Source: a virus (lineage: Duplodnaviria; Heunggongvirae; Uroviricota; Caudoviricetes). From it: a stretch of 32,517 nucleotides of DNA. The notes under the pieces are model-generated. The model saw only the letters and a program-made list of their open reading frames with translations. It had not been told where the DNA came from and searched no databases. The position numbers were made by a program, and so were the translations under genes. The stretch lies in the IMG/VR virus record IMGVR_UViG_2718218100_000008, one strand, 5' to 3'. Shown in pieces: positions 1 to 32,517 of this stretch (position 1 is its first letter; each line of letters opens with the position of its first letter).

Positions 1-1143
1 CTATGCTGTTTTGATATCTACGATAATCCAGTCTTTACCACGATCATCATTGTATCGGTCGGTCATTTTTCTGGATTTATGACCTAACAACTTTTGCGTA
101 TCCAGACCCTGTTCCCGATATAACCGTTCTGACAGAGATCGCTGCTCATGAAATGTGGGCGCAGTTCCTTGCTCCCATTTTATGCCACATTTTTCCCTGG
201 CCTTTTTAAAAGCCGTTGTAAGAGTATTTGCAGACACCTGGTCTCCTCTGTTTGCTTGAGAGGTAGTGTGACGGTAATGGACCAGATATTTACTAACAAC
301 AGCATCCCTGCACTGAGATATAACTTCACGAAGGGTAATATTCAGAGCATCGCATTTCAGGTTAAGCGGAATAGCAAGTTTTGAACCGGTTTTTTCCTGA
401 GTAATGTGCAACATGTCGTCCCAGATATCAGAGAATTTCAAATTGCAGATATCGCTTAAACGTTGTCCAGTGACAAGAGCAAGTAGCATCCCGCATTTTA
501 AATAGGGCTGCCGTCTGCTTACGCTGTCAAATATTGCCTGCCATTCGGGCAGTGATAATCTTTGGCGGTTTACTCGATTTCGCGGTTGTTTTGTTGCCTG
601 CGCTGGGTTAAATCCTGGCGGAACATGTCCTGCGTGTTGTGCTTCTTTGAAGACGTCGATCAACACCATTCTCACGACTTGCGCCATCCTGTTATGACCT
701 TCAGCCTTTACAGCATCAATTATTTCGGCAATATCAAGTGCGGTAATATCCTTGAGGTGTTGCATTCCACAATGCTCACGGAAAAGACGGATGGGTTTGC
801 CTTTTTGCCGATAGGAGTTGGGTCTTAGTTCATTATGTTGCAGCCTGTCCTCCTGGATAGAATTATATTTATCAAGCCATTCTGTCACCGTAATGTCTGA
901 GCGCCTGCCTTTCATTCTTTCCAGACGCTCATTGACGCTTAATATTTGTCGGGTACGTTGTTCAGCAATAATGGTATTTGCTTCAGTAGCAACTTGTTTT
1001 GCTTCATTCTCATCAGTTCCTAAGCTATGAAAACGACCGGATAGTGGATGTTTGTATTGCCAATATACCTTTCCGGTTCGCTTATCTAATTTGCAATATA
1101 AATTGGGTATAGAGATTTTGTGAGATCGGGGGCTAGCAGCCAT
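1..1143 (-). CDS. int: Phage tyrosine integrase (site-specific recombinase), complete; stop codon at window positions 1-3
   Basis: 380-aa ORF; C-terminal catalytic region shows the H-x-x-R (TFHEQRSLSERLY) and terminal Tyr (KSRKMTDRY) pattern of tyrosine recombinases; 11-bp overlap with the upstream excisionase-like ORF; sits at the prophage end. Confidence 0.9.
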   Translation of the reverse strand: MAASPRSHKISIPNLYCKLDKRTGKVYWQYKHPLSGRFHSLGTDENEAKQVATEANTIIAEQRTRQILSVNERLERMKGRRSDITVTEWLDKYNSIQEDRLQHNELRPNSYRQKGKPIRLFREHCGMQHLKDITALDIAEIIDAVKAEGHNRMAQVVRMVLIDVFKEAQHAGHVPPGFNPAQATKQPRNRVNRQRLSLPEWQAIFDSVSRRQPYLKCGMLLALVTGQRLSDICNLKFSDIWDDMLHITQEKTGSKLAIPLNLKCDALNITLREVISQCRDAVVSKYLVHYRHTTSQANRGDQVSANTLTTAFKKAREKCGIKWEQGTAPTFHEQRSLSERLYREQGLDTQKLLGHKSRKMTDRYNDDRGKDWIIVDIKTA

Positions 1144-1369
1144 CAGCGATTATCCGTTGGAGTTTTGGGTTTGCGTTTATTGGGAGTTGCGGTTCTGCAA
1201 GCGTTCCTACAAAACGGGAATTTCGGTCAATCATCCAGTAGCGACCAACTTTTATAGCGGGTGGGGCCATCATTTTCCCTTGCGCGTATTTTTTCAGAAC
1301 TCGCTCACTTGGTGCTAAGTCCCCAAATTCTTCTTTAGCCCAGTCCCGTAAAGTGATTAGTCGAGACAT
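1133..1369 (-). CDS. xis: Excisionase-like small DNA-binding protein
   Basis: 78-aa ORF directly upstream of and overlapping int on the same strand, the classic xis-int arrangement; family assignment from recalled similarity to lambdoid prophage excisionases. Confidence 0.7.
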   Translation of the reverse strand: MSRLITLRDWAKEEFGDLAPSERVLKKYAQGKMMAPPAIKVGRYWMIDRNSRFVGTLAEPQLPINANPKLQRIIADGC

Positions 1370-1472: not shown

Positions 1473-2297
1473 ATGCTGAGAAATGCAGTATTGAATTTAT
1501 CAATTTTTCACCAGCTTCTGGTCTTTCTGGCTGTCATGCGCAAAACATATGGCTTTAATAAAAAACTGGATTGGGTTAGCAACGAGCAACTTTCCGAATT
1601 AACCGGGATATTGCCGCACAAGTGTTCTGCTGCAAAAAGTGTTCTGGTAAAGCGTGGGATTTTTATTCAGAGCGGGCGGAATACCGGCATTAATAATGTG
1701 GTCAGTGAATGGTCAACATTACCCGAATCAGGTAAGAAAAATAAAGTTTACCTGAAAGAGGTAAATTTACCTGAATCAGGTAAAAAAAGTTTACCCAAAT
1801 CAGGTAAAGGCGTTTACCCGAATCAGGTAAACACAAAAGACAAACTAACAAAAGACAATATAAAACCTTTTTCGTCCGAGAATTCTGGCGAATCCTCTGA
1901 CCAACCAGAAAACGATCTTCCTGTGGTGAAACCGGATGCTGCAATTCAGAGCGGCAGCAAGTGGGGGACAGCAGAAGACCTGACCGCCGCAGAGTGGATG
2001 TTTGACATGGTGAAGACCATCGCGCCATCAGCCAGAAAACCGAATTTTGCAGGGTGGGCTAACGATATCCGCCTGATGCGTGAACGTGACGGACGTAACC
2101 ACCGCGACATGTGCGTGCTGTTCCGCTGGGCATGCCAGGACAACTTCTGGTCCGGTAACGTGCTAAGTCCGGCCAAACTCCGCGACAAGTGGACCCAGCT
2201 CGAAATCAACCGTAACAAGCAACAGGCAGGCATGATAGCCAGCAAACCAAAACTCGACCTGACAAACACTGACTGGATTTACGGGGTGGATTTATGA
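1473..2297 (+). CDS. O: Replication initiation protein O; C-terminal half matches lambda O as recalled, N-terminal iteron-binding part diverged and apparently shortened
   Basis: 274-aa ORF; C-terminus (TKDNIKP...NFAGWANDIRLMRERDGRNHRDMCVLFRWACQDNFWSGNVLSPAKLRDKWTQLEINRNKQQAG...TDWIYGVDL) matches lambda O; an in-frame TGA at 1449-1451 prevents any upstream extension; stop overlaps the P start (ATGA). Confidence 0.85.
   Translation: MLRNAVLNLSIFHQLLVFLAVMRKTYGFNKKLDWVSNEQLSELTGILPHKCSAAKSVLVKRGIFIQSGRNTGINNVVSEWSTLPESGKKNKVYLKEVNLPESGKKSLPKSGKGVYPNQVNTKDKLTKDNIKPFSSENSGESSDQPENDLPVVKPDAAIQSGSKWGTAEDLTAAEWMFDMVKTIAPSARKPNFAGWANDIRLMRERDGRNHRDMCVLFRWACQDNFWSGNVLSPAKLRDKWTQLEINRNKQQAGMIASKPKLDLTNTDWIYGVDL
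1719..1831. repeat. Replication origin iterons: five direct repeats of a ~19-bp palindromic unit (TTTACC-N7-GGTAAA) inside the O gene, followed by an A/T-rich block (1832-1870)
   Basis: Repeat copies read at 1719-1735, 1747-1765, 1766-1784, 1790-1808 and 1813-1831; lambdoid origins are known to lie inside O as iterons followed by an AT-rich unwinding region. Confidence 0.8.
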
Positions 2298-9636: not shown

Positions 9637-9930
9637 TTATTGTGAGCAATACACACGCGCTTCCAGCGGAGTATAAATGCCTAAAGTAATAAAACCGAGC
9701 AATCCATTTACGAATGTTTGCTGGGTTTCTGTTTTAACAACATTTTCTGCGCCGCCACAAATTTTAGCTGCATCGACAGTTTTCTTCTGCCCAATTCCAG
9801 AGACGAAGAAATGGTGGGTGATGGTTTCCTTTGGTGTTACTGCTGCCGGTTTGTTTTGAACAGTAAACGTCTGTTGGGCACATCCTGTAATAAGCAGGGC
9901 CAGCGCAGTAGCGAGTAGCATTTTTTTCAT
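9637..9930 (-). CDS. bor: Bor lipoprotein (serum-resistance-associated)
   Basis: 97-aa ORF MKKMLLATALALLITGCAQQ... matching lambda Bor as recalled; signal peptide with lipobox LITGC. Confidence 0.95.
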   Translation of the reverse strand: MKKMLLATALALLITGCAQQTFTVQNKPAAVTPKETITHHFFVSGIGQKKTVDAAKICGGAENVVKTETQQTFVNGLLGFITLGIYTPLEARVYCSQ

Positions 9931-10062
9931 GGTGTTATTCCCGATGCTTTTTAAAGTTCGCAGAATCGTATGTGTAGAAAATTAAACAAACCCTAAACAA
10001 TGAGTTGAAATCTCATATTGTTAATATTTATTAATGTATGTCAGATGCGAAGGATCGTCACT

Positions 10063-10128
10063 GTATTCCCGGATTAACTATGTCCGCAGCCCTGACAGGG
10101 AAACTCCTCTGCGGGAGTGTCCGGGAAT
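10063..10128. other. Nested inverted repeats: outer TATTCCCGGA / TCCGGGAATA (10 bp), inner CCGCAG / CTGCGG and a central CCCTG-A-CAGGG palindrome
   Basis: Read directly from the sequence; lies in the bor-ybcV intergenic region; candidate structured RNA or protein-binding site. Confidence 0.35.
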
Positions 10129-10221
10129 AATTAATAACGATGCACACAGGGTTTAGCGCGTACACGTATTGCATTATGCCAACGCCCCGGTGCTGACACG
10201 GAAGAAACCGGACGTGATGAT

Positions 10222-10632
10222 TTAGCGTGGAAAGATTTGTGTAGTGTTCTGAATGCTCTCAGTAAATAGTAATGAATTATCAAAGGCATAGTAATATCTT
10301 TTATGTTCGTGGATATTTGTAACCCATCGGAAAACTCCTGCTTTAGCAAGATTTTCCCTGTATTGCTGAAATGTGATTTCTCTTGATTTCAACCTATCAT
10401 AGGACGTTTCTATAAGATGCGTATTTCTTGAGAATTTAACATTCACAACCTTTTTAAGTCCTTTTATTAACACAGTGTTATCGTTTTCTAACACAATGTG
10501 AATATTATCTGTGGCTAGATAGTAAATATAATGTGAGACATTGTGACGTTTTAGTTCAGAATAAAACAATTCACAGTTTAAATCTTTTCGCACTTGATCG
10601 AATATTTCTTTAAAAATGGCAACCTGAGCCAT
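10222..10632 (-). CDS. ybcV: Uncharacterized moron protein, YbcV-like
   Basis: AT-rich ORF; start set at the internal Met ([11 protein letters not shown]...) giving 136 aa by recalled homologue length; the ORF track allows an in-frame extension to 10755. Confidence 0.65.
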
Positions 10633-10917
10633 TGGTAAAACCTTCCATGTGATACGAGGGCGCGTAGTTTGCATTATCGTTTTTATCGTTTCAATCTGGT
10701 CTGACCTCTTTGTGTTTTGTTGATGATTTATGTCAAATATTAGGAATGTTTTCAATTAATAGTATTGGTTGCGTAACAAAGTGCGGTCCTGCTGGCATTC
10801 TGGAGGGAAATACAACCGACAGATGTATGTAAGGCCAACGTGCTCAAATCTTCATACAGAAAGATTTGAAGTAATATTTTAACCGCTAGATGAAGAGCAA
10901 GCGCATGGAGCGACAAA

Positions 10918-11124
10918 ATGAATAAAGAACAATCTGCTGATGATCCCTCCGTGGATCTGATTCGTGTAAAAAATATGCTTAATAGCACCATTTCTATGAG
11001 TTACCCTGATGTTGTAATTGCATGTATAGAACATAAGGTGTCTCTGGAAGCATTCAGGGCAATTGAGGCAGCGTTGGTGAAGCACGATAATAATATGAAG
11101 GATTATTCCCTGGTGGTTGACTGA
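10918..11124 (+). CDS. ybcW: Uncharacterized small protein, YbcW-like (68 aa)
   Basis: 68-aa AT-rich ORF divergent from ybcV; corresponds to an ORF near the right end of lambda by recalled collinearity. Confidence 0.65.
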
Positions 11125-12417: not shown

Positions 12418-16098
<3,681 letters not shown>

Positions 16099-19292: not shown

Positions 19293-19646
19293 GTGGCTGA
19301 TTTCGATAACCTGTTCGATGTTGCCATTGCCCGCGCCGATGAAACGATACGCGGGTACATGGGAACGTCAGCCACCATGACATCCGGTGAGCAGTCCGGC
19401 GCAGTAATACGTGGTGTTTTTGATGACCCTGAAAATATCAGCTATGCCGGACAGGGCGTGCGTGTTGAAGGCTCCAGCCCGTCCCTGTTTGTCCGGACTG
19501 ATGATGTGCGGCAACTGCGGCGTGGAGACACGCTGACCATCGGTGAGGAAAACTTCTGGATAGACCGGATTTCGACGGATGATGGCGGAAGCTGTCATCT
19601 CTGGCTTGGGCGGGGCGTACCGCCTGCCGTTAACCGTCGTCGCTGA
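19293..19646 (+). CDS. FII: Head completion protein FII
   Basis: 117-aa ORF matching lambda FII as recalled. Confidence 0.95.
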   Translation: MADFDNLFDVAIARADETIRGYMGTSATMTSGEQSGAVIRGVFDDPENISYAGQGVRVEGSSPSLFVRTDDVRQLRRGDTLTIGEENFWIDRISTDDGGSCHLWLGRGVPPAVNRRR

Positions 19647-19657
19647 AGGGGGGATGT

Positions 19658-20235
19658 ATGGCCATAAAAGGTCTTGAGCAGGCCGTTGAAAACCTCAGTC
19701 GTATCAGCAAAACGGCGGTGCCTGGTGCGTCAGCAATGGCCATTAACCGCGTTGCTTCATCCGCGATATCGCAGTCGGCGTCACAGGTTGCCCGTGAGAC
19801 AAGGGTACGCCGGAAACTGGTAAAGGAAAGGGCCAGGCTGAAAAGGGCCACGGTTAAAAATCCGCAGGCAGAATCAAGGTTAACCGGGGGGATTTGCCCG
19901 TAATCAAGCTGGGTAACGCGCGGGTTGTCCTGTCCCGACGCAGGCGTCGTAAAAAGGGGCAGCGTTCATCCCTGAAAGGTGGCGGCAGCGTGCTTGTGGT
20001 GGGAAACCGTCGTATTCCCGGCGCGTTTATTCAGCAACTGAAAAATGGCCGGTGGCATGTCATGCAGCGTGTGGCCGGGAAAAACCGTTACCCCATTGAT
20101 GTGGTGAAAATCCCGATGGCGGTGCCGCTGACCACGGCGTTTAAACAGAATATTGAGCGGATACGGCGTGAACGTCTTCCGAAAGAGCTGGGCTATGCGC
20201 TGCAGCATCAACTGAGAATGGTAATAAAGCGATGA
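19658..20235 (+). pseudogene. Z: Tail completion gene Z disrupted by a single-base deletion (frameshift near 19870)
   Basis: Two ORF-track pieces (19658-19903 and 19894-20235) together reproduce lambda Z; reading frame A gives ...KNPQAESRLTGGICP-stop, while frame B from 19870 gives RIKVNRGDLPVIKLGNARVVLSRRRRRKKGQ... as in lambda. Confidence 0.8.
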
Positions 20236-20627
20236 AACATACTGAACTCCGTGCAGCCGTACTGGATGCACTGGAGAAGCATGACACCGGGGCGACGTTT
20301 TTTGATGGTCGCCCCGCTGTTTTTGATGAGGCGGATTTTCCGGCAGTTGCCGTTTATCTCACCGGCGCTGAATACACGGGCGAAGAGCTGGACAGCGATA
20401 CCTGGCAGGCGGAGCTGCATATCGAAGTTTTCCTGCCTGCTCAGGTGCCGGATTCAGAGCTGGATGCGTGGATGGAGTCCCGGATTTATCCGGTGATGAG
20501 CGATATCCCGGCACTATCAGATTTGATCACCAGTATGGTGGCCAGTGGCTATGACTACCGGCGCGACGATGATGCGGGCCTGTGGAGTTCAGCCGATCTG
20601 ACTTATGTCATTACCTATGAAATGTGA
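20232..20627 (+). CDS. U: Tail tube terminator protein U
   Basis: 131-aa ORF matching lambda U as recalled. Confidence 0.95.
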
Positions 20628-20634
20628 GGACGAT

Positions 20635-21375
20635 ATGCCAACACCAAATCCTCTGGCACCGGTGAAAGGGGCCGGGACCACACTGTGGGTTTATAACGGG
20701 AACGGCGACCCATATGCAAACCCGCTTTCAGACAATGACTGGTCGCGTCTGGCAAAGGTTAAAGACCTGACGCCCGGCGAACTGACCGCTGAGTCCTATG
20801 ACGACAGTTATCTCGATGATGAAGATGCGGACTGGGCCGCGACCGGACAGGGGCAGAAATCCGCTGGAGATACCAGCTTCACGCTGGCGTGGATGCCCGG
20901 AGAGCAGGGGCAGCAGGCGCTGCTGGCGTGGTTTAATGAAGGTGATACCCGTGCCTATAAAATCCGCTTCCCGAACGGCACGGTCGATGTGTTCCGCGGC
21001 TGGGTCAGCAGTATCGGTAAGGCGGTGACGGCGAAGGAAGTGATCACCCGCACGGTGAAAGTCACCAACGTGGGACGTCCGTCGATGGCAGAAGATCGCA
21101 GCACGGTAACAGCGGCAACCGGCATGACCGTGACGCCTGCCAGCACCTCGGTGGTGAAAGGGCAGAGCACGACGCTGACCGTGGCATTCCAGCCGGAAGG
21201 CGCAACCGACAAGAGCTTCCGTGCGGTGTCTGCGGATAAAACAAAAGCCACCGTGTCGGTCAGTGGTATGACCATCACCGTGAAAGGTGTTGCTGCAGGC
21301 AAGGTCAACATTCCGGTCGTATCCGGTAATGGTGAGTTTGCTGCGGTTGCAGAAATCAACGTCACCGCCAGTTAA
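20635..21375 (+). CDS. V: Major tail tube protein V
   Basis: 246-aa product [33 protein letters not shown]... matching lambda V as recalled, with a C-terminal Ig-like domain. Confidence 0.95.
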
Positions 21376-21390
21376 TCCGGAGAATCAGCG

Positions 21391-21813
21391 ATGTTCCTGA
21401 AAACCGAATCATTTGAACATAACGGCGTGACCGTCACGCTTTCTGAACTGTCAGCCCTGCAGCGTATTGAGCATCTCGCCCTGATGAAACGGCAGGCAGA
21501 ACAGGCGGAGTCAGACAGCAACCGGAAGTTTACTGTGGAAGACGCCATCAGAACCGGCGCTTTTGTGGTGGCGATGTCCCTGTGGCATAACCATCCGAAG
21601 AAGACGCAGATGCCGTCCATGAATGAAGCCGTTAAACAGATTGAGCAGGAAGTGCTTACCACCTGGCCCGCGGAGGCAATTTCTCATGCTGAAAACGTGG
21701 TGTACCGGCTGTCCGGTATGTATGAGTTTGTGGTGAATGATGCCCCTGAACAGGCAGAGGACGCCGGGCCTGCAGAGCCTGTTTCTGCGGGAAAGTGTTC
21801 GACGGTGAGCTGA
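21391..21813 (+). CDS. G: Tail assembly chaperone G
   Basis: 140-aa ORF matching lambda G as recalled. Confidence 0.95.
   Translation: MFLKTESFEHNGVTVTLSELSALQRIEHLALMKRQAEQAESDSNRKFTVEDAIRTGAFVVAMSLWHNHPKKTQMPSMNEAVKQIEQEVLTTWPAEAISHAENVVYRLSGMYEFVVNDAPEQAEDAGPAEPVSAGKCSTVS
21789..21795 (+). promoter_or_regulatory. Programmed -1 ribosomal frameshift slippery heptamer G GGA AAG (G to G-T)
   Basis: Heptamer read in the G zero frame; the -1 frame downstream encodes T (VFDGELSFALKLAREMGRPDWRAMLAGMSSTEYADWHRFY...), the known lambda G-T arrangement. Confidence 0.8.
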
Positions 21814-22229
21814 GTTTTGCCCTGAAACTGGCGCGCGAGATGGGGCGACCCGACTGGCGTGCCATGCTTGCCGGGATGTCATCCACGGAGTATGCCGACT
21901 GGCACCGCTTTTACAGTACCCATTATTTTCATGATGTTCTGCTGGATATGCACTTTTCCGGGCTGACGTACACCGTGCTCAGCCTGTTTTTCAGCGATCC
22001 GGATATGCATCCGCTGGATTTCAGTCTGCTGAACCGGCGTGAGGCTGACGAAGAGCCTGAAGATGATGTGCTGATGCAGAAAGCGGCAGGGCTTGCTGGA
22101 GGCGTTCGTTTTGGCCCGGACGGGAATGAAGTTATCCCCGCTTCCCCGGATGTGGCGGACATGACGGAGGATGACGTAATGCTGATGACAGTATCAGAAG
22201 GGATCGCAGGAGGAGTCCGGTATGGCTGA
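21795..22229 (+). CDS. T: T portion of the G-T frameshift fusion chaperone (expressed only as a fusion by -1 frameshifting from G)
   Basis: -1 frame ORF continuing from the slippery site; matches lambda T as recalled. Confidence 0.85.
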   Translation: MFDGELSFALKLAREMGRPDWRAMLAGMSSTEYADWHRFYSTHYFHDVLLDMHFSGLTYTVLSLFFSDPDMHPLDFSLLNRREADEEPEDDVLMQKAAGLAGGVRFGPDGNEVIPASPDVADMTEDDVMLMTVSEGIAGGVRYG

Positions 22230-22815
22230 ACCGGTAGGCGATCTGGTCGTTGATTTAAGTCTGGATGCGGCCAGATTTGACGAGCAGATGGCCAGAGTCA
22301 GGCGTCATTTTTCCGGTACGGAAAGTGATGCGAAAAAAACAGCGGCAGTCGTTGAACAGTCGATGAGCCGGCAGGCGCTGGCTGCACAGAAAGCGGGAAT
22401 TTCCGTCGGGCAGTATAAAGCCGCCATGCGTATGCTGCCTGCGCAGTTCACTGACGTGGCCACGCAGCTTGCAGGTGGGCAAAGTCCGTGGCTGATCCTG
22501 CTGCAACAGGGGGGGCAGGTGAAGGACTCCTTCGGCGGGATGATCCCCATGTTCCGGGGGCTTGCCGGTGCGATCACCCTGCCGATGGTGGGGGCCACCT
22601 CGCTGGCGGTGGCGACCGGTGCGCTGGCGTATGCCTGGTATCAGGGCAACTCAACCCTGTCCGATTTCAACAAAACGCTGGTCCTTTCCGGCAATCAGGC
22701 CGGGCTGACGGCAGATCGTATGCTGGTCCTGTCCAGAGCCGGGCAGGCGGCAGGGCTGACGTTTAACCAGACCAGCGAGTCACTCAGCGCAGAGTTTGAA
22801 CAGGTGGTGAACTGA
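22222..22815 (+). pseudogene. H: Tape-measure gene H remnant: about 190 N-terminal codons fused in frame to the last ~7 codons of M; the rest of H and almost all of M are deleted
   Basis: 197-aa ORF matches the lambda H N-terminus through ...LTFNQTSESLSA and then reads EFEQVVN-stop, which is the C-terminus of lambda M; the junction at ~22786-22792 lies in a short AGCGCA stretch; L follows immediately (TGATG). Confidence 0.85.
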
Positions 22816-23513
22816 TGCAGGATATCCGGCAGGAAACACTGAATGAATGCACCCGTGCGGAGCAGTCGGCCAGCGTGGTGCTCTGGGAAATCGATCTGAC
22901 AGAGGTCGGTGGAGAACGTTATTTTTTCTGTAATGAGCAGAACGAAAAAGGTGAGCCGGTCACCTGGCAGGGGCGACAGTATCAGCCGTATCCCATTCAG
23001 GGGAGTGGTTTTGAACTGAATGGCAAAGGCACCAGTACGCGCCCCACGCTGACGGTTTCTAACCTGTACGGTATGGTCACCGGGATGGCGGAAGATCTGC
23101 AGAGTCTGGTCGGCGGAACGGTGGTCCGGCGTAAGGTTTACGCCCGTTTTCTGGATGCGGTGAACTTCGTCAACGGAAACAGTGACGCCGATCCGGAGCA
23201 GGAGGTGATCAGCCGCTGGCGCATTGAGCAGTGCAGCGAACTGAGCGCGGTGAGTGCCTCTTTTGTACTGTCCACGCCGACGGAAACGGACGGCGCTGTT
23301 TTTCCGGGACGTATCATGCTGGCCAACACCTGCACCTGGACCTATCGCGGCGATGAGTGCGGTTATCACGGTCCGGCGGTCGCGGATGAATATGACCAGC
23401 CAACGTCCGATATCACGAAGGATAAATGCAGCAAATGCCTGAGCGGTTGTAAGTTCCGCAATAACGTCGGCAACTTTGGCGGCTTCCTTTCCATTAACAA
23501 ACTTTCGCAGTAA
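22815..23513 (+). CDS. L: Tail tip protein L
   Basis: 232-aa ORF matching lambda L as recalled (MQDIRQETLNECTRAEQSASVVLWEIDLTEVGGERYFF...). Confidence 0.95.
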   Translation: MQDIRQETLNECTRAEQSASVVLWEIDLTEVGGERYFFCNEQNEKGEPVTWQGRQYQPYPIQGSGFELNGKGTSTRPTLTVSNLYGMVTGMAEDLQSLVGGTVVRRKVYARFLDAVNFVNGNSDADPEQEVISRWRIEQCSELSAVSASFVLSTPTETDGAVFPGRIMLANTCTWTYRGDECGYHGPAVADEYDQPTSDITKDKCSKCLSGCKFRNNVGNFGGFLSINKLSQ

Positions 23514-23518
23514 ATCCC

Positions 23519-24262
23519 ATGACACAGACAGAATCAGCGATTCTGGCGCACGCCCGGCGATGTGCGCCAGCGGAGTCGTGCGGCTTCGTGGTAAGCACGC
23601 CGGAGGGGGAAAGATATTTCCCCTGCGTGAATATCTCCGGTGAGCCGGAGGCGTATTTCCGTATGTCGCCGGAAGACTGGCTGCAGGCAGAAATGCAGGG
23701 TGAGATTGTGGCGCTGGTCCACAGCCACCCCGGTGGTCTGCCCTGGCTGAGTGAGGCCGACCGGCGGCTGCAGGTGCAGAGTGATTTGCCGTGGTGGCTG
23801 GTCTGCCGGGGGACGATTCATAAGTTCCGCTGTGTGCCGCATCTCACCGGGCGGCGCTTTGAGCACGGGGTGACGGACTGTTACACGCTGTTCCGGGATG
23901 CTTATCATCTGGCGGGGATTGAGATGCCGGATTTTCATCGCGAGGATGACTGGTGGCGTCACGGTCAGAATCTCTATCTGGATAATCTGGAGGCCACAGG
24001 GCTGTATCAGGTGCCGTTGTCATCAGCACAACCGGGCGATGTGCTGCTGTGCTGTTTTGGTTCATCGGTGCCGAATCATGCCGCCATTTACTGTGGTGAT
24101 GGCGAGCTGCTGCACCATATTCCTGAACAACTGAGCAAACGAGAGAGGTATACCGACAAATGGCAGCGACGCACACACTCCCTCTGGCGTCACCGGGCAT
24201 GGCGCGCATCTGCCTTTACGGGGATTTGCAACGATTTGGCCGCCGCATCGACCTTCGTGTGA
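23519..24262 (+). CDS. K: Tail tip assembly protein K (JAB/MPN-like and NlpC/P60-like motifs)
   Basis: ORF matching lambda K as recalled; HSHP motif (ALVHSHPGG); the true start may be an internal Met. Confidence 0.9.
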   Translation: MTQTESAILAHARRCAPAESCGFVVSTPEGERYFPCVNISGEPEAYFRMSPEDWLQAEMQGEIVALVHSHPGGLPWLSEADRRLQVQSDLPWWLVCRGTIHKFRCVPHLTGRRFEHGVTDCYTLFRDAYHLAGIEMPDFHREDDWWRHGQNLYLDNLEATGLYQVPLSSAQPGDVLLCCFGSSVPNHAAIYCGDGELLHHIPEQLSKRERYTDKWQRRTHSLWRHRAWRASAFTGICNDLAAASTFV

Positions 24263-24831
24263 AAACGGGGGCTGAAGCCATCCGCGCACTGGCCACACAG
24301 CTCCCGGTGTTTCGTCAGAAGCTGAGCGACGGCTGGTATCAGGTACGGATTACCGGGCGGGACGTCAGCACGTCCGGGTTAACGGCGCAGTTACATGAGA
24401 CTCTGCCTGATGGCGCTGTGATTCATATTGTTCCCAGAGTCGCCGGGGCCAAGTCAGGTGGCGTATTCCAGATTGTCCTGGGGGCTGCCGCCATTGCCGG
24501 ATCATTCTTTACCGCCGGAGCCACCCTTGCAGCATGGGGGGCAGCCATTGGGGCCGGTGGTATGACCGGCATCCTGTTTTCTCTCGGTGCCAGTATGGTG
24601 CTCGGTGGTGTGGCGCAGATGCTGGCACCGAAAGCCAGAACTCCCCGTACACAGACAACGGATAACGGCAAACAGAACACCTATTTCTCCTCACTGGATA
24701 ACATGGTTGCCCAGGGCAATGTTCTGCCGGTTCTGTACGGTGAAATGCGCGTGGGGTCACGCGTGGTTTCTCAAGAGATCAGCACGGCAGACGAAGGGGA
24801 CGGTGGTCAGGTTGTGGTGATTGGTCGCTGA
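24160..24831 (+). CDS. I: Tail tip assembly protein I
   Basis: 223-aa ORF matching lambda I as recalled; overlaps the K 3-prime end in another frame. Confidence 0.9.
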   Translation: MAATHTLPLASPGMARICLYGDLQRFGRRIDLRVKTGAEAIRALATQLPVFRQKLSDGWYQVRITGRDVSTSGLTAQLHETLPDGAVIHIVPRVAGAKSGGVFQIVLGAAAIAGSFFTAGATLAAWGAAIGAGGMTGILFSLGASMVLGGVAQMLAPKARTPRTQTTDNGKQNTYFSSLDNMVAQGNVLPVLYGEMRVGSRVVSQEISTADEGDGGQVVVIGR

Positions 24832-24888
24832 TGCAAAATGTTTTATGTGAAACCGCCTCCGGGCGGTTTTATCGTTTATGGAGCATGA

Positions 24889-28290
<3,402 letters not shown>

Positions 28291-28308
28291 ATTTTATAAC
28301 CCAGAACG

Positions 28309-28335
28309 GGCGTCAGAAATGACGCCTTTTTTATT
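28309..28335 (+). terminator. Intrinsic terminator after J (GGCGTCA-GAAA-TGACGCC followed by TTTTTTATT)
   Basis: Read directly from the sequence. Confidence 0.6.
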
Positions 28336-28356
28336 GCAGAAAAGCGAGAGGTAATT

Positions 28357-28956
28357 ATGCGTAAACTTTATGCCGCCATTTTGTCCGCAGCCATTTGTCT
28401 GGCCGTATCCGGTGCGCCTGCATGGGCATCTGAACATCAGTCCACGCTGAGCGCGGGGTATCTTCATGCCCGGACCAACGTTCCCGGCAGTGATGATCTG
28501 AACGGGATTAACGTGAAATACCGTTATGAGTTTACGGATACGCTGGGGCTGGTGACGTCATTCAGCTATGCAGGAGACAAGAATCGCCAGCTGACCCGTT
28601 ACAGCGATACCCGCTGGCATGAAGATTCCGTGCGTAACCGCTGGTTCAGCGTGATGGCGGGGCCGTCTGTGCGCGTGAATGAATGGTTCAGCGCGTATGC
28701 GATGGCGGGTATGGCTTACAGCCGTGTTTCGACTTTTTCCGGGGATTACCTTCGCGTAACTGACAACAAGGGGAAAACGCACGATGTGCTGACCGGAAGT
28801 GATGACGGTCGCCACAGCAACACGTCTCTGGCGTGGGGGGCTGGCGTGCAGTTTAACCCGACCGAATCCGTGGCCATTGATATTGCTTATGAAGGTTCTG
28901 GCAGTGGTGACTGGCGCACTGACGGGTTCATCGTGGGTGTTGGTTATAAATTCTGA
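28357..28956 (+). CDS. lom: Outer membrane beta-barrel protein Lom (Ail/Lom family)
   Basis: 199-aa ORF with signal peptide; matches lambda Lom as recalled; C-terminal ...GVGYKF. Confidence 0.95.
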   Translation: MRKLYAAILSAAICLAVSGAPAWASEHQSTLSAGYLHARTNVPGSDDLNGINVKYRYEFTDTLGLVTSFSYAGDKNRQLTRYSDTRWHEDSVRNRWFSVMAGPSVRVNEWFSAYAMAGMAYSRVSTFSGDYLRVTDNKGKTHDVLTGSDDGRHSNTSLAWGAGVQFNPTESVAIDIAYEGSGSGDWRTDGFIVGVGYKF

Positions 28957-28982
28957 TTAGCCAGGTAACACAGTGTTATGAC

Positions 28983-29009
28983 AGCCCGCCGGTTCAGGCG
29001 GGCTTTTTT
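28983..29009 (+). terminator. Intrinsic terminator after lom (AGCCCGCC-GGTTCA-GGCGGGCT followed by TTTTTT)
   Basis: 8-bp perfect stem plus T-run read directly. Confidence 0.65.
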
Positions 29010-29020
29010 GTGGGGTGAAT

Positions 29021-31936
29021 ATGGCAGTAAAGATTTCAGGTGTACTGAAAGACGGCACAGGAAAACCGGTACAGAACTGCACAATCCAGCTGAAAGCAAA
29101 ACGTAACAGTACCACGGTGGTGGTGAACACGCTGGCCTCAGAAAATCCGGATGAAGCCGGGCGTTACAGCATGGACGTTGAGTACGGTCAGTACAGCGTT
29201 ATTCTGTTGGTGGAAGGGTTCCCGCCGTCACATGCCGGGACCATCACCGTGTATGAAGATTCTCAACCCGGTACGCTGAATGATTTTCTTGGTGCCATGA
29301 CTGAGGATGATGTCCGTCCGGAGGCACTGCGCCGTTTTGAGCTGATGGTGGAAGAGGTGGCGCGTAACGCGTCCGCGGTGGCACAGAACACGGCAGCCGC
29401 GAAGAAGTCAGCCAGCGATGCCAGCACATCAGCCCGTGAGGCGGCAACCCATGCGACTGATGCTGCGGACTCAGCACGCGCAGCCAGCACGTCAGCCGGA
29501 CAGGCCGCGTCGTCGGCTCAGTCAGCGTCTTCCAGCGCAGGAACGGCATCAACAAAGGCTACTGAAGCATCAAAAAGTGCTGCCGCTGCAGAGTCCTCAA
29601 AAAGCGCGGCGGCTACCAGTGCCGGTGCGGCGAAAACGTCAGAAACGAATGCGGCAGTGTCACAACAATCAGCCGCCACTTCTGCATCCACCGCGACCAC
29701 GAAAGCGTCAGAAGCTGCCTCCTCAGCCAGGGATGCGTCGGCTTCAAAAGAGGCGGCAAAATCATCAGAAACGAGCGCAGCCTCGAGCGCCAGTAGTGCA
29801 GCCTCCTCGGCAACGGCGGCAGGCAATTCCGCGAAGGCGGCCAAAACGTCTGAGACAAACGCTAAGTCCTCTGAAACGGCAGCAGAACAGAGTGCCTCCG
29901 CAGCAGCAGGCTCAAAAACAGCGGCTGCATTATCTGCCAGTGCCGCGTCAACAAGTGCCGGGCAGGCCTCAGCCAGTGCCACCGCCGCCGGAAAATCGGC
30001 AGAAAGTGCCGCATCGTCTGCTTCAACAGCCACAACGAAGGCTGGCGAAGCCACTGAACAGGCCAGCGCAGCAGCGAGTTCTGCTTCCGCAGCGAAGACA
30101 TCCGAAACGAACGCGAAAGCGTCGGAAACCAGCGCAGAATCCTCAAAAACGGCTGCCGCATCGTCAGCCAGTTCGGCGGCGTCATCGGCATCATCTGCGT
30201 CTGCTTCAAAAGATGAGGCGACCAGACAAGCGTCAGCAGCGAAGAGCAGCGCCACGACGGCATCCACGAAGGCGACAGAGGCAGCTGGTAGTGCGACGGC
30301 AGCAGCTCAGAGCAAAAGTACGGCGGAATCTGCAGCAACGCGCGCTGAGACAGCGGCAAAACGGGCAGAGGATATTGCATCCGCCGTGGCGCTTGAGGAT
30401 GCGAGCACGACGAAAAAGGGGATAGTACAGCTCAGCAGTGCGACTAACAGCACTTCCGAGTCACTGGCGGCAACGCCAAAAGCCGTTAAGGCCGCGTATG
30501 AGCTGGCTAACGGGAAATACACCGCACAGGATGCAACGACAGCACAGAAAGGGATAGTTCAGCTTAGCAACGCGACCAACAGCACATCTGAAATGCTGGC
30601 GGCAACGCCAAAGTCGGTAAAGGCAGCCTATGACCTTGCTAACGGGAAATATACTGCTCAGGACGCTACGACAGCACAAAAAGGAATTGTCCAGCTCAGT
30701 AGTGCAACCAACAGCGCATCTGAAACGCTTGCCGCGACACCGAAAGCAGTGAAAGCAGCTAATGATAATGCGAATGGTCGGGTACCTTCTGCCCGTAAGG
30801 TGAATGGTAAGGCGCTTTCATCGGATATAACACTGACGCCGAAAGATATTGGTACGCTTAACTCAACAACAATGTCATTCAGCGGTGGTGCTGGTTGGTT
30901 CAAATTAGCAACGGTAACCATGCCACAGGCGAGTTCTGTTGTTTCAATTACGTTGATTGGTGGCGCGGGATTTAACGTGGGGTCACCTCAACAGGCAGGT
31001 ATATCTGAACTTGTTTTGCGTGCAGGTAATGGTAATCCGAAGGGGATTACTGGTGCTTTATGGCAGCGCACATCGACAGGGTTTACAAATTTTGCCTGGG
31101 TCAATACATCTGGTGATACTTACGATATTTACGTTGCAATCGGAAATTATGCGACTGGTGTAAATATTCAATGGGATTATACCAGTAATGCCAGCGTGAC
31201 GATTCATACGTCACCAGCATATTCTGCTAATAAGCCGGAAGGGTTAACGGACGGTACAGTTTATTCACTCTATACGCCATCAGAGCAGTTTTATCCGCCT
31301 GGCGCACCAATCCCGTGGCCATCAGATACCGTTCCGTCTGGCTATGCCCTGATGCAGGGGCAGACTTTTGACAAATCTGCATACCCGAAACTTGCAGCCG
31401 CTTATCCGTCAGGCGTGATCCCTGATATGCGTGGCTGGACGATTAAGGGCAAACCTGCCAGTGGTCGGGCCGTATTGTCTCAGGAACAGGACGGCATTAA
31501 ATCGCACACCCACAGCGCCAGCGCATCCAGTACGGATTTGGGGACGAAAACCACATCGTCGTTTGATTACGGCACTAAATCCACGAATAACACCGGGGCG
31601 CACACGCACAGTGTGAGCGGTACAGCCGCAAGTGCCGGAAACCATACTCATAGTGTCACAGGCGCATCAGCAGTCAGCCAGTGGTCACAAAATGGGTCAG
31701 TACATAAGGTAGTGTCTGCGGCCAGTGTGAATACAAGTGCTGCAGGAGCGCACACTCATAGTGTCAGCGGCACAGCTGCATCTGCAGGTGCTCACGCACA
31801 TACTGTCGGTATTGGTGCTCATACGCACTCTGTTGCGATTGGCTCACATGGACACACCATCACCGTTAACGCTGCGGGTAACGCGGAAAACACTGTCAAA
31901 AACATCGCATTTAACTACATTGTGAGGCTTGCATAA
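29021..31936 (+). CDS. stf: Side tail fibre protein Stf, full-length single ORF
   Basis: N-terminus [26 protein letters not shown]... and C-terminus with HxH repeats ending ...[22 protein letters not shown] match the recalled full-length Stf of the original lambda isolate; long Ala/Ser/Thr-rich central region; ATG at 29021 preferred over the upstream GTG. Confidence 0.9.
30407..30760 (+). repeat. Three in-frame tandem repeats (about 129-132 bp each) inside stf
   Basis: Repeat units start at 30407, 30536 and 30668; they encode TT(A)(Q/K)KGIVQLS(S/N)ATNS(T/A)SE(S/M/T)LAATPK(A/S)VKAA...; the third copy diverges after ~31 codons. Confidence 0.8.
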
Positions 31937-32517
31937 TGGCATTCAGAATGAGTGAACAACCACGGACCATAAAAATTTATAATCTGCTGACCGGAACTAA
32001 TGAATTTATTGGTGAAGGTGACGCATATATTCCGCCTCATACAGGTCTGCCAGCAAACAGTACCTATATTGCACCGCCAGATATTCCGGCTGGCTTCGTG
32101 GCTGTTTTCAACAGTGATGAGTCATCGTGGCATCTCGTTGAAGATCATCGGGGTAAAACGGTTTATGACGTGGCTTCCGGCGACGCGTTATTTATTTCTG
32201 AACTCGGCTCATTACCGGAAAATGTTACCTGGTTATCGCCGGAAGGGGAGTTTCAGAAGTGGAACGGCACAGCCTGGGTGAAAGATGCAGAAGCAGAAAA
32301 ACTGTTCCGGATCCGGGAGGCGGAAGAAACAAAAAACAGCCTGATGCAGGTAGCCAGTGAGCATATTGCGCCACTTCAGGATGCTGTAGATCTGGAAATC
32401 GCAACGGAGGAAGAAACCTCATTGCTGGAAGCCTGGAAAAAGTATCGGGTGTTGCTGAACCGTGTTGATACATCAACTGCACCTGATATTGAGTGGCCTG
32501 TAATACCTGAAGTTTAA
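31936..32517 (+). CDS. tfa: Tail fibre assembly chaperone Tfa, complete; stop codon at the window end
   Basis: 193-aa [56 protein letters not shown]... matching the lambda Tfa family as recalled; TAATG overlap with stf. Confidence 0.9.

Follow-up and report, generated by a model that had tools for sequence, protein, structure and literature searches.

The window analysed here, the whole stretch of 32,517 nucleotides, is the icd-integrated prophage of Escherichia coli O157 strain 472 (human, UK; NZ_CP018245.1), which it matches at 100%, with positions 2600-32517 identical to that record. At its left end it carries an integrase gene adjoining icd (1-1143, minus strand), an excisionase gene (1133-1369, minus strand) and, directly after the latter, an O replication gene that is truncated at its 5' end (1509-2297, plus strand); these left-end coordinates (1-2297) were converted from those of the record. 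No N, cI, cro, cII or recombination genes are annotated, and nothing lies between xis and O. The gene order then continues through P, ren, emrE, ybcK, nin-region genes, Q, lysis genes and bor into a lambda-like head and tail module that extends to tfa. Beyond the right end of the window (L001 30038-36110) are genes for a Mn catalase, two ferritin-like proteins, a general stress protein and a methyltransferase, followed by a tfa fragment, ISEc8 and then ompT.

We classify this element as an Sp8-type prophage because of its location at icd, the absence of CI and Cro, the lambda-type P and the catalase cargo. Sp8 is the icd prophage (PMC8190617), it carries the putative catalase ECs1652 (PMC2323221), and it has neither CI nor Cro, its helicase loader is of the lambda type, and its morphogenesis genes form a complete set (PMC2669165). 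The strain 472 element has the icd-adjacent integrase and a lambda-type P with no CI/Cro region, but its morphogenesis set is incomplete, with a frameshift in a Z-like gene, a truncated H and the loss of M. In this it differs from Sp8 of strain Sakai, for which every morphogenesis gene was rated as conserved (PMC2669165). Both that prophage and the equivalent copy in EDL933 occupy the same icd site and share the order int, xis, truncated O, P, ren, emrE and ybcK, followed by the head and tail genes and, on the ompT side, the catalase cargo; what sets strain 472 apart from them is the loss of 2,282 bp, which takes in H codons 191-849 and M codons 1-102, and the 1 bp deletion in the Z-like gene that is common to its sublineage. 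Identity with Sakai Sp10 or EDL933 CP-933X was considered and rejected, as Sp10 occupies the Rac attachment site and its loader is of the DnaC type.

The H position and its neighbours

Where the tape-measure gene H is expected there is instead an ORF of 197 codons (22222-22815, plus strand), a pseudogene remnant in which the beginning of H is joined to the end of M. It is preceded by the chaperone gene G (21391-21813) and the T frame (21795-22229), both on the plus strand and intact, and the GGGAAAG slippery heptamer at 21789, at which a programmed -1 frameshift makes the G-T fusion, is intact as well. G and T are identical in all four genomes used for comparison (strains 155, EDL933, 319 and 180-PT54), so that chaperones are still encoded for a tape measure that has vanished. 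Downstream, and likewise on the plus strand, are the genes for minor tail protein L (22815-23513), K (23519-24262), I (24259-24831), J (24892-28290), lom (28357-28956), stf (29021-31936) and tfa (31936-32517).

The fusion ORF was noticed in the initial annotation, which read it as about 190 codons of lambda H followed by the C terminus of M, and both the ORF itself, on the plus strand, and this reading of it are borne out by comparison with the parental locus. It consists of parental H codons 1-190, the last seven codons of M (EFEQVVN) and M's own stop codon, such that the protein ends in ...FNQTSESLSAEFEQVVN*. The Ser-Ala at residues 189-190 is encoded by sequence that H and M share at this point, and either gene could be its source; the M remainder is therefore seven residues, or nine if the repeat-encoded Ser-Ala is counted. 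The fusion TGA overlaps the ATG of L (TGATG) at 22815, exactly as at the parental M/L junction.

Comparison with Pfam shows how little of either protein is left. The fusion aligns only with positions 2-141 of the 208-position TMP_2 profile (PF06791; E = 9e-50), the parental H protein aligns with positions 2-207, and the ORF thus stops within the TMP_2 domain. Tape_meas_lam_C (PF09718), present at residues 627-701 of parental H, was not found by Pfam in the 197-residue product, nor was Phage_min_tail (PF05939), for which parental M matches positions 1-108 of 108. The product therefore has neither the length of a lambda-type gpH of about 850 residues (197 as compared with 849 in the parent and 853 in lambda) nor a complete N-terminal TMP_2 domain, and it does not contain the Phage_min_tail domain of about 108 residues that defines the distal tail protein gpM. 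Since its residues 1-190 are 100% identical to parental H and it ends inside TMP_2, it is not a naturally short protein unrelated to H and M, an alternative that the initial annotation had set against its own reading. In public annotation the H remnant is already known as a pseudogene: RefSeq lists 22222-22791 as BFL23_RS11555, 'incomplete; missing C-terminus'.

The genes that follow the fusion were initially described as intact from L through K, I, J, stf and tfa, and this description stands. L is intact, its product (WP_001152612.1) being identical in strains 472, 155, 319, 180-PT54 and EDL933, and the protein accessions of K, I and tfa are also those of the undeleted relatives; J, lom and stf are full-length, as are K, I and tfa. 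Across 22784-32517 a single SNP separates the window from strains 319 and 180-PT54, at position 26102, where it produces the I404T substitution by which J differs from the relatives. The intactness of these genes most likely reflects the recency of the deletion.

The deletion junction

Alignment with lambda (NC_001416) places the breakpoint precisely. Window positions 21390-22791 correspond to lambda 9710-11111 at 98.1% identity and positions 22784-23520 to lambda 13398-14134 at 98.5%, and the two alignments share eight bases, TCAGCGCA, at window positions 22784-22791. This segment is the one kept copy of a direct repeat, matches lambda in both the left and the right register (plus strand), and occurs in lambda itself both in H (11104-11111) and in M (13398-13405). 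The initial annotation had recognized microhomology at this point but gave it as the 6 bp AGCGCA; the microhomology is real, and its extent is 8 bp. The junction k-mer is ACCAGCGAGTCACTCAGCGCAGAGTTTGAACAGGTGGTG.

The parental locus was taken from the copies of the same prophage in strains 155, EDL933, 319 and 180-PT54, in all four of which H is 2,550 bp (849 residues), M is 330 bp (109 residues) and L follows. Measured against this true parent the gap is 2,282 bp, and against lambda it is 2,294 bp, both in agreement with the first estimate of about 2.3 kb; the two values differ because parental O157 H is 12 bp (four codons) shorter than lambda H. Lambda has the same gene order and overlapping stop and start codons, with nucleotide identities of 98.1% across G-T-H' and 98.5% across 'M-L, and its H (853 residues) and M (109 residues) genes are complete. 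In the parental H and M genes TCAGCGCA occurs exactly twice, 2,282 bp apart and at both of the end points (in EDL933, L004 20985-20992 and 23267-23274), one copy being at H codons 188-190 and the other 31 bp before the end of M. When 2,282 bp are taken out of the parental sequence the result is exactly window 22001-23600. The coding sequence removed comprises 659 H codons (191-849) and 102 M codons (1-102), close to the 660 or so H codons and nearly all of M that had been thought absent.

The M frame is offset by 2 from that of H, and 2,282 mod 3 is also 2, so that the length of the deletion restores the reading frame as had been proposed. There are no filler bases at the junction, nor any IS element or IS terminal repeat, and both sides are parental base for base; the nearest annotated IS is ISEc8, about 14 kb downstream and outside the window. 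An IS-mediated deletion was considered and is rejected, given that the junction is parental sequence on both sides. Apart from the deletion, no difference from EDL933 or strain 155 is seen between 19870 and 26101, an interval that includes all of 19870-22791; strains 319 and 180-PT54 likewise match the window throughout 20325-22791.

How unusual an 8 bp junction homology is was assessed by simulating 2,000,000 random deletions of 0.5-5 kb in the parental sequence, in which homology of 8 bp or more was found in a fraction of 2.4e-4. The rarity of such homology points to a deletion between short direct repeats. Direct repeats are plentiful in the parental H and M region, with 192 8-mer pairs and a few repeats that extend to as much as 11 bp, and there were thus many possible repeat substrates, of which the deletion event used one. 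The event has a direct repeat at both parental ends, one copy kept, and homology longer than expected by chance, which are the hallmarks of a slippage-type deletion. Spontaneous lacI deletions are the classical E. coli example of replication slippage between short direct repeats, and we see no feature that distinguishes the strain 472 case from classical events of this kind, in which there are likewise two parental repeats, one is kept, the interval is lost, and there is neither filler sequence nor a mobile element.

The deletion would thus have begun with mispairing between the two 8 bp repeats in H and M, and one repeat copy together with all of the sequence between the copies would have been removed, with replication slippage or another RecA-independent short-homology deletion as the likely route. 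The remnant would then read through as H(1-190)-M(103-109), ending at the M stop codon that overlaps the L start. This route is suggested by the signature of the 8 bp repeats in the sequence, and a RecA-independent process is its likely form. The in-frame outcome is a one-in-three chance and needs no selection, both because of this prior expectation and because the two out-of-frame alternatives would yield ORFs of 195 and 191 residues, which end within a few codons anyway.

Relatives, distribution and order of decay

The junction is very rare. A 401 bp junction query has a full-length match in only one of 5,426 complete E. coli genomes, that of strain 472 (100%), and the remaining matches cover either the M-L side or the H side alone. 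The H N-terminal segment, by comparison, is found in about 3,680 of the 5,426, and many O157:H7 genomes have it at 100% identity inside a full-length 'phage tail tape measure protein'; in strain 472 three places match the H N-terminal query. The exact 39-mer junction was absent from species-representative genomes and from metagenome contigs. The exact fusion protein was absent from the public gene-position collection, although this is uninformative: its gene counts as a pseudogene, and assemblies made from short reads will probably fragment within tail genes that recur across prophages.

The evidence for the deletion thus comes from a single long-read assembly, that of strain 472 (BioProject PRJNA336330, BioSample SAMN05544767). 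This genome was assembled from long-read sequencing, and the paper that describes its sequencing does not mention the H-M deletion (PMC5359411). Strains 155 and 319 are sister assemblies from the same project. The prophage of strain 472 lies at about 2.08-2.13 Mb and in the opposite orientation to those of strains 155 and 319, which are at 1.56-1.65 Mb, some 0.5 Mb away; this shifted and flipped position may reflect a large chromosomal inversion bounded by prophages, or just the orientation of the assembly.

A survey of the same prophage in related genomes had been proposed from the outset, and it finds full-length H and M in EDL933, 155, 319 and 180-PT54. Identity between the window and the EDL933 copy is 99.97% across the left 21 kb and 99.73% across the right 9.7 kb. 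Strains 319 and 180-PT54 are closer, with 8 SNPs separating them from the window in about 30.7 kb; they have the frameshift in the Z-like gene in common with it and retain H and M intact. This frameshift lies in a tail completion gene (19658-20235, plus strand) that is split, relative to EDL933 and strain 155, by a 1 bp deletion at 19869 (GGCCAG to GGCAG), and the gene is annotated as frameshifted in strains 472 (RefSeq), 319 and 180-PT54. That the missing base is a long-read error was considered and is rejected, since the sequence recurs at 100% in no fewer than seven further O157 genomes, which come from several projects (319, 350, 180-PT54, 644-PT8, 2571, 7636 and DEC4E). The Z frameshift is a genuine marker of a sublineage, and it is older than the H-M deletion, because strains 319 and 180-PT54 share the frameshift but keep H and M.

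The truncation of O is identical in all five genomes examined (472, 155, EDL933, 319 and 180-PT54), and every copy examined is without the immunity and early region. The prophage has thus suffered at least three inactivating events, of which the H-M deletion is the latest. Decay probably started when the early region was lost and O was truncated, as seen in every copy examined; the Z frameshift came next, in the sublineage, and the H-M deletion last, in strain 472 only.

Several smaller differences were recorded in the course of these comparisons. Private to strain 472 with respect to the four comparison genomes are a nonsynonymous SNP at 19321 (A10V in the head-tail joining FII-like protein), the nonsynonymous SNP at 26102 in J and a synonymous SNP at 13159 in the large terminase gene. 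Within the window, 24 SNPs relative to EDL933 and strain 155 are concentrated in about 570 bp at 28593-29161, covering the 3' end of lom and the 5' end of stf; this segment is present at 100% in strains 319, 350 and 272, in several other O157 genomes and in a few non-O157 E. coli, and it resembles a tract passed between lambdoid prophages by recombination. In strain 155 one extra A in an A-run frameshifts the large terminase gene (L003 11082, equivalent to window position 12883). The extra base is absent from the other four genomes, and it could be either a homopolymer sequencing error or a private inactivating mutation.

Origin and meaning of the deletion

Taken together, these observations very probably describe a 2,282 bp deletion specific to strain 472, formed between 8 bp repeats in an Sp8-type prophage that was already defective, as the latest of its inactivating events and as part of its neutral decay. 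There are other ways in which such a junction might come about, and the simplest is that it is an artefact of assembly or consensus calling, or else a deletion that arose on laboratory passage and is absent from the natural strain 472 population. The occurrence of the junction in one genome of 5,426 and the want of any independent record of the fusion protein or junction in the gene-position collection, the representative genomes or the metagenomes would fit either version; the strain 155 genome from the same project has a probable homopolymer error in the extra A of its terminase gene, and a deletion that had arisen in the stock of the sequenced clone would look identical to what we see. We nonetheless regard an origin of this sort as unlikely. 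Long-read consensus errors are typically 1 bp indels, and a clean 2.3 kb loss of unique sequence is atypical of them; its ends in 8 bp repeats are a biological signature (P = 2.4e-4), and such repeats are far too short for repeat collapse by an assembler. Moreover, the indel in the Z-like gene of this same assembly proved genuine, being present in independently sequenced genomes.

A second group of alternatives accepts the deletion but gives it another origin or another meaning. Recombination between prophages, whether as an unequal crossover or as gene conversion templated by an already deleted copy, might be entertained because the tail genes of several prophages in an O157 genome resemble one another, as seen in the three places matching the H N terminus in strain 472, and because the SNP-dense segment at 28593-29161 is consistent with recombinational exchange within this prophage. 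Both flanks of the deletion are, however, 100% identical to the Sp8-type parent up to the junction, the gene order follows that of Sp8 without a break on either side, starting at the integrase by icd and running to the catalase and ompT, and a check for further copies of the junction in strain 472, which covered one of the record's two matching places, found it at this locus only. Eight base pairs are also too short for RecA-dependent homologous exchange, and we consider this route hardly credible. Only slightly less remote is the suggestion that the in-frame fusion was selected and is functional, being expressed so that ribosome coupling into L lets a dead prophage supply tail-tip and fibre parts to other O157 prophages, or so that a truncated tape measure bound by G/GT poisons the tails of co-resident or superinfecting lambda-like phages. 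The native M stop codon overlapping the L ATG is kept and with it the coupling signals, the downstream tail genes are intact, and defective O157 prophages have been reported to interact in transfer (PMC2669165). Against a role of this kind, which we hold to be very improbable, are the one-in-three chance of an in-frame outcome, with ORFs of 195 and 191 residues expected in the other frames; the restriction of the allele to one genome, with no sign of spread or retention; the absence of the early regulatory region, and the inactivity of Sp8 in strain Sakai; and the frameshift that was already present in the Z-like gene upstream in the same operon.

A deletion between short repeats in a prophage already in decay thus remains the reading that we prefer, and its consequences for the tail can be judged from what is known of lambda, in which a hexameric ring of gpM anchors the tip complex on the tail tube, a C-terminal helix of gpH (residues 818-842) forms a coiled coil in the lumen of the tip on the gpI tripod, and the gpH oligomer sets the length of the tube (PMC10721106). 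The fusion is without the C-terminal 659 residues of H, which include Tape_meas_lam_C and the tip helix, and without nearly all of M. Since it has none of the gpM ring, the gpH tip helix or the length-setting parts of gpH, the prophage is predicted to be unable to make a tail initiator or tube of its own.

The prophage was, however, dead before this happened. With the early region absent, O truncated and the Z-like gene frameshifted earlier, the H-M deletion disabled no working phage, and it changes nothing in the ability of the prophage to form phage, the element being already immobile and its tail already defective. Sp8 of strain Sakai, for its part, shows no circularization, replication or packaging (PMC2669165). 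We infer that the deletion represents neutral decay and not adaptation.

The case has little significance beyond bookkeeping and opens no new question. It is nevertheless a clean example of the erosion of a cryptic prophage, with the parent, the end points and the 8 bp repeats all identified, and it illustrates how genes for the tail can survive undamaged downstream of a deletion even when the prophage has become unable to use them. The deletion might also serve as a strain or sublineage marker for strain 472, by a PCR that would give 0.85 kb in place of 3.1 kb.

DLP12 of E. coli K-12 is another lambdoid prophage that has progressively lost structural genes. It has the gene names emrE, ybcK, ybcN, ninE, ybcO, rusA, rzpD, bor, ybcV, ybcW and nohD in common with the strain 472 element, as well as ompT as a neighbour, and by these annotated names the emrE-to-nohD module corresponds to DLP12. 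In DLP12 nearly the whole head and tail module has gone, and the attachment site is a different one; the strain 472 element, unlike DLP12, has kept most of its structural genes and sits at icd.
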